A stretch of 5,405 bases of DNA, from the IMG/VR virus record IMGVR_UViG_2534681653_000013, one strand, 5' to 3'. Below the pieces are notes generated by a model, which saw only the letters and a list, made by a program, of their open reading frames with translations, ran no database searches and was not told the DNA's origin. Positions within the stretch are counted from its first letter, which is position 1. Every line of letters starts with the position of its first letter. Positions 2,932 through 5,405 of the stretch are shown here, one piece after another. The translations under genes were made by a program, and so were the position numbers. The stretch is from a virus (Duplodnaviria; Heunggongvirae; Uroviricota; Caudoviricetes).

Positions 2932-2954
2932 AAACGTCCCCGTTTAGCGCAGAA

Positions 2955-2983
2955 GTCACCGGAGTTGTTCAGGCTCCGGTGAC
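2955..2983. repeat. Perfect 10-bp palindrome GTCACCGGAG-N9-CTCCGGTGAC
   Basis: Read directly from the sequence. Lies in the ybcM-ylcH intergenic region, immediately downstream of the candidate -10 at 2987-2992. Confidence 0.6.
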
Positions 2984-2986
2984 ATA

Positions 2987-3015
2987 ATTATGCCGTGTTG
3001 ATTTCCCAAAATCAA
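2987..3015 (-). promoter_or_regulatory. Candidate sigma70 promoter for the ylcH-ybcN-ninE-ybcO-rusA-ylcG-Q block
   Basis: Minus strand TTGATT (-35, 3010-3015), 17-bp spacer, CATAAT (-10, 2987-2992). The predicted start site falls within the right arm of the adjacent palindrome. Confidence 0.3.
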
Positions 3016-3047
3016 AATCGATAGAATTGCTCCTTCTTAAAACACTT

Positions 3048-3845
3048 TTACTCTCTGGAAGCTTTTCTTATCTCTCTTGGTGTTATATTAAAACGATTAT
3101 GAAATCTTTCAGTAAAACGCGAAGGACACTTATAACCATTTTCTCTGGCAATCTCGCTTATAGGTTTTACCGTCGTTTGTATAGCAGACAACGCATTATT
3201 TAACCTCACATCGTCCAGTATACTTTGGAAACTTACCCCCTCGCTTGCTAGACGGCGATGTAATGTAGAAACAGAAATGTAGAGATATCGAGCAACCTTG
3301 TTTGCTGTCCATTTTGTGCCGGGTTCGGATAGCAGCAGGTTATAACAACGACTTATCAATGATTGTTTACTATATGATAAAAGTAAATGATTAACATGAT
3401 TCACTCCTAACGAAAGTAGAACGCCCATTGCTAAGTGCTCCTGAATTTTAGTTGAGAAGCCTCGGGAAACAGATGTTTTTAGTTGCTCCCAACAATATAT
3501 TAACTCAGGATTCTGAGGTAAAAAGAAACTTGTTTTGTTACGTATTTGATCAGTTACCGTATAAAGCTTTTGGAAACTCTCAATTAAATCAATGGGTAAG
3601 TAAAGCATTTCTGCAAGATAAAGCCCTGCTTCAGGATAATTCTCAATATAAAATTCATAACCACAAGGAAATAATATTATTTGATTATTATCAACAGTTA
3701 AAGTATGCGTCTCCCAATTGATAACTTTCTTTCCCTGACGGATACGACACAAAGCTGGCATAAGAGGCTTAACCCTATGAATCTCATGATGTTTATGCAT
3801 CCGTATTTCTTCGATCTTTAAGTTAGTCTTACCTCTTGCCAGCAT
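3048..3845 (-). CDS. ybcM: AraC/XylS-family transcriptional regulator YbcM, 265 aa
   Basis: Track ORF; ATG at 3845. The C-terminal region ([43 protein letters not shown]...) looks like a tandem AraC-type helix-turn-helix. Visibly AT-rich coding sequence. Confidence 0.88.
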
Positions 3846-3854
3846 ACTCTCACC

Positions 3855-4406
3855 CTACTTTATCTCATAAACTGGTGTTATCTCAGCGGTTGCGATTTTA
3901 TTAGCATTAAGCATATAACCAACTAACGCTCCGCTGGAGTTAGAATCTACAGGAATCTTTTCAGTTTTTAGAGCCCATACTTTAAACTGGTAATGATGTG
4001 GTTTATCTCCTTTAGGAGGACATGCGCCACCAAACCCAGCATAGCCAAAATCATTTCGGCCTTGAACAGCACCAGTCGGCAGTTTTGTTCCATCACGTCT
4101 CCCTGCATCAACGGGCAAATATGTTACTGTTGCTGGAATATTAACAACAGTCCAATGCCACCAACCACTGCCTGTAGGTGCATCTGGATCATATACAGTT
4201 ACGGCAAAGCTTTTGGTACCTTCAGGAACACCAGACCAGGTTAATGAGGGCGATGTATTACCACCTTCACACCCAAATCCAGAAAAGACATGAGACGTTG
4301 TAAGTTGCTCTCCTGTTTTTATTTCATTACTAGCGACCTGAAATGCTGCAGCCTGCGCAGAAAATGTTATGAATGCCAATACAGTTGAAACGATAAGTGT
4401 TTTCAT
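3855..4406 (-). CDS. ybcL: Periplasmic PEBP-family protein YbcL, 183 aa
   Basis: Track ORF; ATG at 4406 with AAGAGG about 6 nt upstream. N-terminal signal peptide MKTLIVSTVLAFITFSAQAAA. PEBP/YbhB-family motifs YDPDAP and GDKPHHYQF. Stop is 9 nt upstream of the ybcM ATG. Confidence 0.9.
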   Translation of the reverse strand: MKTLIVSTVLAFITFSAQAAAFQVASNEIKTGEQLTTSHVFSGFGCEGGNTSPSLTWSGVPEGTKSFAVTVYDPDAPTGSGWWHWTVVNIPATVTYLPVDAGRRDGTKLPTGAVQGRNDFGYAGFGGACPPKGDKPHHYQFKVWALKTEKIPVDSNSSGALVGYMLNANKIATAEITPVYEIK

Positions 4407-4622
4407 AAAAACCTCTTTGTTATGACCTATCGTTATTTTATTTGATATTCCTTTATCTCATTATGCATAAAGGCGCAATGTTCATGCAAAAGCAATCACA
4501 ATTGTACCCCCAACCCAATTATTTGCCACAATATACACAAAGCACATTGATACTATCTAAAAACTCTGCTTTATTATTAGTAATACCTACGAAAGTCGGT
4601 GTTATTTTTTAACCTACCATTC

Positions 4623-4672
4623 AAAATACGTGACATACACCATTTTGCTCATAATAATTTGTCACGTATTTT
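4623..4672. repeat. Perfect 13-bp inverted repeat AAAATACGTGACA-N24-TGTCACGTATTTT
   Basis: Read directly from the sequence. Sits in the AT-rich intergenic region upstream of ybcL; candidate operator or paired half-sites. Confidence 0.5.
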
Positions 4673-4870
4673 CAGTATTTGAATCTGCGACCAAGAGTTC
4701 TCACCTAACAAATGATTAAGATTGTATAGCTCATTTACTACCCCAATACAGCCGTACAAAACTCGCTTGTGGGAGCAAACAAAGTAATTACCCATTAAGT
4801 TTCGTTAAAGATAATTAATTCTGTCTTGCACTTTATCATCATAGCATAACTTAAAATCCGAGATCATTAT

Positions 4871-5329
4871 TTAGAAATAAATCTCACCATCAACCATATA
4901 TTTGAGAGCACTTATCGCCTGCTGGGCAGATATTACTTTCATTAAAGGATAGTGTTTAAAAACAATGCCATTCATAAAATAGATATCACAGGTTTTATTA
5001 TCCGTATTAATTATGATTTTTTCGAATATTTTATAGGCAAGTGTACGGCATAACTCTCGTCCATTTTTACTGGTTAAGTCAATAGCATAAAAATCACTGA
5101 ATGAATTTACACCTTTACTCTTCAAAGTTTTCAATGATACCGAAGCCCTTCGTAATTCCTTATCTAATAGTCTTATTTTCTCTGCTATAGCGGTAACTTC
5201 AGGCGCGACAGACAATGCAACGATTAAATTATTAATTTTCATCTGAAGCTCAATAATTTTTAACTCTAAAGTTTCATTAGCATCTTTCTTGTTTTCAACT
5301 GGTTGAATTTTGCTACAATTAAAAAGCAA
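4871..5329 (-). CDS. Recombinase-like ORF, 152 aa as tracked; possibly the C-terminal part of a disrupted ybcK-like serine recombinase
   Basis: Track ORF starting at TTG with no convincing Shine-Dalgarno at TTG 5329 or the internal ATG. Predicted coiled-coil stretch followed by a C-terminal region that resembles large-serine-recombinase C-termini (impression only). In-frame TAA at 5363-5365 closes the frame upstream, while a different frame is open from the window edge to about 5267. Confidence 0.4.
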   Translation of the reverse strand: MLFNCSKIQPVENKKDANETLELKIIELQMKINNLIVALSVAPEVTAIAEKIRLLDKELRRASVSLKTLKSKGVNSFSDFYAIDLTSKNGRELCRTLAYKIFEKIIINTDNKTCDIYFMNGIVFKHYPLMKVISAQQAISALKYMVDGEIYF

Positions 5330-5405
5330 TTCTGAACCGCCCCGGGTTTCCTGGAGAGTGTTTTATCTGTGAACTCAGGCTGCCAGATCATCGTTTCCGA
5401 TGGAA

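Follow-up and report, generated by a model that had tools for sequence, protein, structure and literature searches.

Analysis of the window, a 5405-bp stretch of DNA examined at its full length, showed that the spacer between ybcL and ybcK holds a perfect inverted repeat whose arms, AAAATACGTGACA (4623..4635, 13 nt) and TGTCACGTATTTT (4660..4672, 13 nt), are 100% complementary across a gap of 24 nt, with a span of 50 bp and a centre-to-centre distance of 37 bp. Neither the ybcLM promoter nor the mapped YbcM operator includes the repeat. Sequence comparison shows it to be foreign to both the ybcLM cassette and the ybcK module in the forms that these take elsewhere, and it marks an orphan joint between them. 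The repeat may be a weak, non-canonical 3′-end or insulator hairpin at this mosaic joint, the most economical of the readings but a tentative one, which we regard as possible rather than probable. At most, it would be an unannotated hairpin of that kind in a cryptic prophage, and would matter little in itself. An earlier, sequence-only reading of this DNA was partly supported by the analysis: the coordinates and sequences that it gave for the perfect 13-bp repeat, with arms 24 bp apart, proved exact.

The window was identical (100%) to O157:H7 E. coli chromosomes and represents, read on the reverse strand, the nin region of a lambdoid prophage of the DLP12 type. The genes ybcK, ybcL and ybcM follow one another in that order, all on the minus strand: the 3′ part of ybcK, encoding a large serine recombinase (4871..5329), the spacer between the ybcK stop and the ybcL start (4407-4870, 464 bp), ybcL, encoding a periplasmic protein of the phosphatidylethanolamine-binding family (3855..4406), and ybcM, encoding an AraC-family regulator (3048..3845). 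In the window's strain, ybcK is interrupted by IS1203 at ~5332. The last bases of the window (5333-5405) are the end of this IS3-family IS1203/IS629 copy within ybcK, and the gene is uninterrupted in K-12 and in other O157 strains. Also present are the prophage genes quuD, ylcG, rusA, ybcO, ninE, ybcN and ylcH, and a minus-strand cluster of three tRNA genes (213-464; tRNA-Arg(tct), tRNA-Arg(tcg) and tRNA-Met/Ile(cat)) downstream of the Q antiterminator gene. Positions 1-103 on the minus strand matched the small RNA family STnc100 in part (63.7 bits). Just upstream of ylcH, at 2955-2985, lies a GC-rich hairpin, GTCACCGGAG-N9-CTCCGGTGAC, that is kept in the backbone of all compared ybcK-bearing prophages and has no T-tract after it on either strand. 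RefSeq records for O157 and K-12 MG1655 carry no annotated feature in the spacer. The spacer had been described as an AT-rich intergenic region of ~460 bp, and this was confirmed, with a GC content of 0.32-0.35. The whole ybcM-ybcL-ybcK block (~2950 to 5400) has a GC content of 0.30-0.43, however, and is as AT-rich as the spacer, so that the composition of the spacer is undistinctive.

Among perfect inverted repeats with arms of 11 nt or longer and no more than 120 nt between them, this repeat is the only one in the window. When the 464-bp spacer was shuffled with its dinucleotide composition preserved, 5 of 2000 replicates (0.25%) produced a perfect repeat with arms of 13 nt or longer no more than 60 nt apart, and a chance origin of the repeat inside the spacer is unlikely. 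The outer ends of the arms are AAAAT/ATTTT, and the 24-bp stretch between the arms (4636..4659) is asymmetric. The right arm has an imperfect tandem repeat, GTATTTTCA/GTATTTGAA, at its outer edge (4666-4680); with 8 nt of this tandem taken out, the arms would reach 17 nt (ATTCAAAATACGTGACA / TGTCACGTATTTTGAAT).

Published data place the ybcLM promoter, the transcription starts and the YbcM footprint within 4428-4530, well away from the repeat. K-12 coordinates were converted to those of the window through the ybcL ATG (570,116 in U00096.2; 570,893 in U00096.3), the spacer being 464 bp in both strains. ChIP-exo of YbcM, which autoregulates ybcLM, gave only one site ahead of ybcLM, a very strong one (U00096.2 570015-570048, signal/noise 357; PMC8464067), corresponding to a minus-strand footprint at 4474..4507. 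Genomic SELEX identified a constitutive sigma-70 promoter, GTGGCA-17-TACAAT (4501..4529, minus strand), and listed the spacer as H-NS bound (PMC3946193), and SELEX with RpoS holoenzyme gave a peak at 570042, or window 4480 (PMC5493296). The 5′ UTR of 47 nt tabulated for ybcL corresponds to a start site at ~4452 (PMC4448311), which would fit a candidate promoter read from the sequence, TTGCAT-18-CATAAT (4459..4488, minus strand). Cappable-seq (PMC4782308) gives a start site at U00096.2 570094, or window 4428, in a minus-strand start region (4428..4440) with TAAAAT at 4435-4440, and gives no further sense-strand start between 4428 and the interior of ybcK. An alignment of ybcLM loci showed that the YbcM footprint and the promoter are spanned by a block conserved at all of them.

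The repeat, by comparison, lies between two co-directional units, 199 nt past the ybcK stop and at least 116 bp upstream of every mapped ybcL promoter element. With the promoter and the YbcM footprint this far off, the mapped YbcM operator must be distinct from the repeat. The ybcL-ybcM promoter that the sequence-only reading had expected in the spacer is indeed there, but it was already known and lies elsewhere than the repeat. Annotation of the repeat as the operator or promoter of ybcLM would be unwarranted, as those are already mapped ~120-200 bp away.

If the hairpin reading is correct, minus-strand transcription out of ybcK would allow the arms to pair as a stable, non-canonical stem-loop ~200 nt beyond the ybcK stop, with the ybcLM promoter cassette, complete in itself, following shortly after. 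A hairpin so placed would serve to mark the 3′ end of the ybcK transcript or to protect it, and would partly shield ybcLM from read-through. The sense RNA folds with a 13-bp stem at -18.9 kcal/mol (z-score -3.8) and the antisense RNA at -14.9 kcal/mol (z-score -4.6), and no other strong hairpin follows ybcK in the ybcK-ybcLM arrangement. Its position is that expected of an intrinsic terminator, downstream of the ybcK unit and ahead of the next promoter. With its AAAAT/ATTTT arm ends, its place downstream of a gene and a stable hairpin on both strands, the repeat resembles the bidirectional A-tract/T-tract intrinsic terminators. Where the repeat lies, that its arms pair and that it is independent of the promoter are shown by the data; any effect of the hairpin on transcripts is something that we infer.

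The stem itself departs from the canonical form in several ways. Only 4 of its 13 pairs are G-C, and the loop is 24 nt long, whereas intrinsic terminators have G+C-rich stems of ~5-14 bp and loops of 3-8 nt. In place of a U-tract, there are four U at the 3′ end of the stem (AUUUU, within the arm) followed by GAAUGG. The tail score was 1.76, as against 3.7-4.7 for canonical neighbours, and a d'Aubenton-Carafa-type score was -56, far below the +22 to +26 found for the canonical terminators after homologous recombinase genes. A scan with the terminator consensus returned no hits. In the sense RNA, the stretch between the arms forms a 6-bp A-U/G-U helix no better than that of shuffled loops, and the extra pairs found by RNAfold in the loop and flanks were likewise at shuffle level (P = 0.36 and 0.71), so that nothing beyond the arms indicates selection at the RNA level. 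Extra structure specific to the sense strand was considered and rejected, as shuffled loops and flanks folded equally well. The copies are too alike (97-100% identity) to show covariation. In the Term-seq table, the only end falls inside ybcK and none at the repeat; ybcK is silenced in K-12, so the table is uninformative on this point.

Comparison with related loci provided a positional parallel, although a single case. The emrE-ybcL spacer of E. albertii carries a canonical terminator (3703-3726 of locus L051; 10-bp stem, 4-nt loop, six-T run) that ends 22 nt short of the point where homology upstream of ybcL starts (window 4597), and the repeat of the window ends 26 nt short of it. The two thus occupy the same place relative to the conserved block upstream of ybcL. 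Unlike the repeat, however, the E. albertii terminator is GC-rich and canonical and follows emrE rather than ybcK, and the two sequences are unrelated. Relatives of ybcK in other genera are also followed by a canonical terminator, 30-360 nt past the stop codon. In phage lambda, the sib/tI retroregulator lies downstream of int. The repeat is similar in being a hairpin a few hundred nucleotides after a phage recombinase gene, whose mRNA stability it could control. It differs in that there is no sign of RNase III cleavage or of a stem that is extended only on read-through; the additional pairs are at chance level.

The distribution of the repeat was examined across genomes carrying either of the flanking modules. 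Of 5426 complete E. coli genomes, 3258 carried ybcLM, only ~670 of them with a copy of DLP12 type; in ~2590 of the 5426, a ybcLM copy 90-95% identical was found without the repeat. Copies of ybcLM without the repeat are ~4-fold commoner than those with it, and retain their own upstream block. In the two loci opened (L003 and L004), this copy lies between fliE and yedK, with no ybcK; emrE is 168 bp upstream of ybcL, and a porin gene is nearby in one of them. The fliE-yedK locus looks like an old, decayed prophage remnant. Homology of that locus to the window runs from within ybcL to 4561, where emrE takes over. The order emrE-ybcL-ybcM also occurs in E. albertii and Shigella, and there too the repeat is absent, as it was from all six loci in GTDB genomes with YbcM.

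On the other side of the joint, ybcK was found in 1431 complete E. coli genomes, and the segment bearing the repeat in only 675 of them. Among the classified ybcK loci of IMG/VR, 30 of 78 had the repeat and 48 of 78 did not, while YbcK was 97-100% identical across loci with and without it. In the repeat-less loci, ybcK is followed by a gene for an alpha/beta hydrolase, by a P22AR-C gene, or by hardly any sequence ahead of ylcH-ybcN. With ybcLM included, at least four types of cargo (ybcLM, alpha/beta hydrolase, P22AR-C gene, nothing) were observed after 97-100% identical ybcK genes (L006, L007, L008 and L055-L134), and in each case the flanks were the same, the ybcK tail on one side and the ylcH-ybcN backbone on the other. 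This arrangement makes the region downstream of ybcK a hot spot for cargo swapping beside a large serine recombinase.

These comparisons delimit the joint. The 3′ tail of the ybcK module (4793..4870, minus strand) is common, with some divergence, to ybcK loci carrying other cargo, and the segment that contains the repeat (4598..4792, or from 4562 if the E. coli boundary is taken; ~195-230 bp) is present only where ybcK adjoins ybcLM. Its bounds are the points at which homology stops: 4561 for E. coli loci lacking ybcK, ~4597 for E. albertii, and ~4793-4801 for other ybcK phages. All copies of the segment are 97-100% identical and come from one near-clonal prophage arrangement. Searches with distant blastn settings, using the spacer and a 300-bp sub-segment against phages, plasmids and the 5426 E. 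coli genomes, returned only DLP12-type copies (97-100%). In IMG/VR, a strict pattern for the repeat gave 40 matches, all in the same prophage, and a relaxed pattern added 14 unrelated matches, none near a relative of YbcK. The repeat occupies one place per genome in the 675 genomes, not several copies as for dispersed repeats of the MITE, REP or ERIC kind. The unit ylcJ-ybcK-repeat was also considered as a 2085-bp recombinase-only mobile element, as suggested by its absence from the fliE-yedK ybcLM locus. This was dropped, since the junctions showed only ATTATT microhomology, that locus resembles a decayed prophage, and homology to other ybcK phages breaks elsewhere (~4793-4801).

A conservation check across prophages had been proposed by the sequence-only reading. 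The left arm was unchanged in all 47 copies examined, although this invariance is limited to the ybcK-ybcLM arrangement. When 41 full-length copies were compared, the spacer contained 17 polymorphic sites, none of them in 4618-4706. Only ~3 would be expected in that interval, and its freedom from polymorphism is therefore weak evidence for constraint.

The repeat may instead have no function, being a neutral by-product in a junk joint formed when ybcK and ybcLM were brought together, and preserved only because all its known copies are recent. This is possible too, and almost as likely as the hairpin reading. The repeat could have originated, for example, in a template switch or quasi-palindrome correction event, or as a decayed terminator. 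Such a relic would agree with the orphan character of the ~195-230 bp segment, for which no homologue was returned by the E. coli, phage, plasmid and IMG/VR searches, with the near-identity of its copies and the small number of polymorphisms expected in 4618-4706, and with the wide occurrence of both flanking modules without the repeat. It would also agree with the lack of signal at the repeat in the ChIP-exo, Term-seq and Cappable-seq data, the last for the sense strand. A few perfect 13-bp repeats would, moreover, be expected by chance in a genome-wide scan. Against this, the chance probability within the spacer is 0.0025, and the repeat, with its A-tract/T-tract ends and its place corresponding to that of the E. 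albertii terminator, looks more hairpin-like than random. With near-identical copies only, the sequence would be compatible with a hairpin, a relic or a protein site.

The last of these, in which a host or prophage transcription factor other than YbcM would bind the arms as half-sites in dimeric or tetrameric form, is unlikely. Symmetric arms around an asymmetric 24-bp middle would suit two half-sites better than a hairpin, and the 50-bp span matches that of known AraC-family sites. RhaS and RhaR sites consist of 17-bp inverted half-sites 16-17 bp apart. A protein bound here would also cover the -35 element and the start region of a promoter-like sequence within the repeat, GTGACA-17-AATAAT (4630..4658, plus strand). 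However, no candidate protein is known, the ChIP-exo of YbcM had no peak on the repeat, and the AppY motif from ChIP-seq, ATGSCWGM, is absent from it. By eye, the known CRP, Fur, PhoB, IHF and LexA motifs gave no convincing match to the repeat. The spacing of the arms, 3.5 helical turns, would place them on opposite faces of the DNA, and the site is not conserved outside one lineage.

A role as an attP-like or res-like recognition site of the adjacent large serine recombinase YbcK, in line with the recombination site that the sequence-only reading had linked to the neighbouring gene, seems quite improbable, and this idea was weakened by the distribution described above. YbcK contains all three recombinase domains, and its relatives occur at prophage ends beside ssrA or lepA, as would be expected of integrases. 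The attP sites of phiC31, Bxb1 and A118 are ~50 bp long with symmetric outer parts. The repeat, 199 bp from the ybcK stop, resembles them in its 50-bp length, its outer symmetry and its nearness to a recombinase gene. Within the ~40-50 bp palindrome shape of att or res sites, however, only the outer 13 bp of the repeat are perfect, and the inner 12 bp of the halves agree at only 3 of 12 positions. Unlike an attP site, the repeat is also not co-inherited with the recombinase gene: it accompanies 675 of the 1431 ybcK genomes and 30 of the 78 IMG/VR loci, despite the 97-100% identity of YbcK, and relatives with 50-61% identity to YbcK have no comparable repeat nearby. Split halves, the expected product of recombination, were not found in the 5426 genomes, all 675 segment copies being full length, and there was no second copy of an arm at any module boundary that could serve as a partner site. 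That the repeat is the cognate site of YbcK, and that DLP12-type phages would carry a second serine-recombinase module in the nin region, is very improbable. Were it true, the YbcK module would capture or exchange cargo (ybcLM, the hydrolase gene, the P22AR-C gene and, in relatives, DinI/KGG), or would integrate at an alternative site.

The relatives of YbcK themselves showed a variety of contexts. Those with 50-61% identity (in L135, 4001-6432, and in L159, L137, L140 and L161) were seen at prophage ends by ssrA (Atlantibacter) or lepA (Erwinia), beside ogr in a P2-like Yersinia prophage, or in lambdoid nin regions, where DinI/KGG cargo followed. Sequences resembling tRNA 3′ ends (T-arm plus ...CCA) were observed 95-230 nt past the recombinase stop in two loci (L137, ~5705-5760; L155, ~5663-5700), hinting at attachment sites in tRNA genes for the YbcK recombinase family, and ARAGORN called no full tRNA on L137. 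In L140, the recombinase and cargo island is flanked by 230-bp direct repeats that are 82% identical (3623-3851 and 6609-6831). Both are derived from the 5′ portion of a DUF1367 gene, and the upstream one is a truncated ORF of 81 aa. No flanking direct repeats like those of L140 were found around the E. coli island. The variable cargo after near-identical ybcK genes, together with the relatives at prophage ends, may merit separate study.

It is highly improbable that the spacer encodes a small protein or a small RNA, or that an antisense transcript starts within the repeat. An unannotated small RNA had been suggested for this region; Rfam gave no match in 4407-4870 when the whole window was searched at E-values up to 1, and the Cappable-seq data contain no sense-strand start between ybcK and 4428 (PMC4782308), and hence none near the repeat. 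The promoter-like GTGACA-17-AATAAT, a predicted match at 10 of 12 positions, is antisense to ybcK and could initiate such a transcript; promoter-like matches in the region numbered 4, however, against a shuffle expectation of 3.1. The sequence-only reading was essentially right that the spacer holds no convincing ORF. A 48-aa ORF (4649..4795, minus strand), which ends in the stretch between the arms, has been annotated by a gene caller in three phage records. It is not supported as a gene: it has no Pfam or PHROG match and no Shine-Dalgarno sequence, a search of 5.8 billion proteins returned only the ORF itself, and both polymorphisms inside it are non-synonymous. On the plus strand, an ORF of 56 aa (4442-4612) likewise has no Pfam or PHROG match.

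The remaining proposal, that the repeat is an upstream YbcM operator forming, for example, an AraC-like loop with the promoter-proximal site, is barely tenable and already largely refuted. The AraC-family YbcM is encoded next door and autoregulates ybcLM, and the repeat and the mapped site are ~150 bp apart, with the repeat upstream, a separation over which AraC-type looping occurs. ChIP-exo, however, found one strong site (4474-4507) and none at the repeat, and ybcLM and its promoter block are kept without the repeat in ~2590 E. coli genomes, in E. albertii and in Shigella. The repeat is like the operator pairs of RhaS/RhaR-type AraC-family proteins in its ~50-bp span, inverted half-sites and adjoining AraC-family gene; it is unlike them in that the mapped YbcM site is elsewhere and unrelated to it in sequence. 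At ybcL and ucpA, the sites of YbcM agree with each other at 11 of 12 positions, while the best match in the repeat is 9 of 12, which is the background mode. A sequence common to the two strongest YbcM ChIP-exo regions, CTTTATGCAT(A/C)AT, was observed at ybcL (4455-4468) and at ucpA (NC_000913.3 ~2544740-2544753); it could be part of a YbcM motif, or merely the -10 regions.
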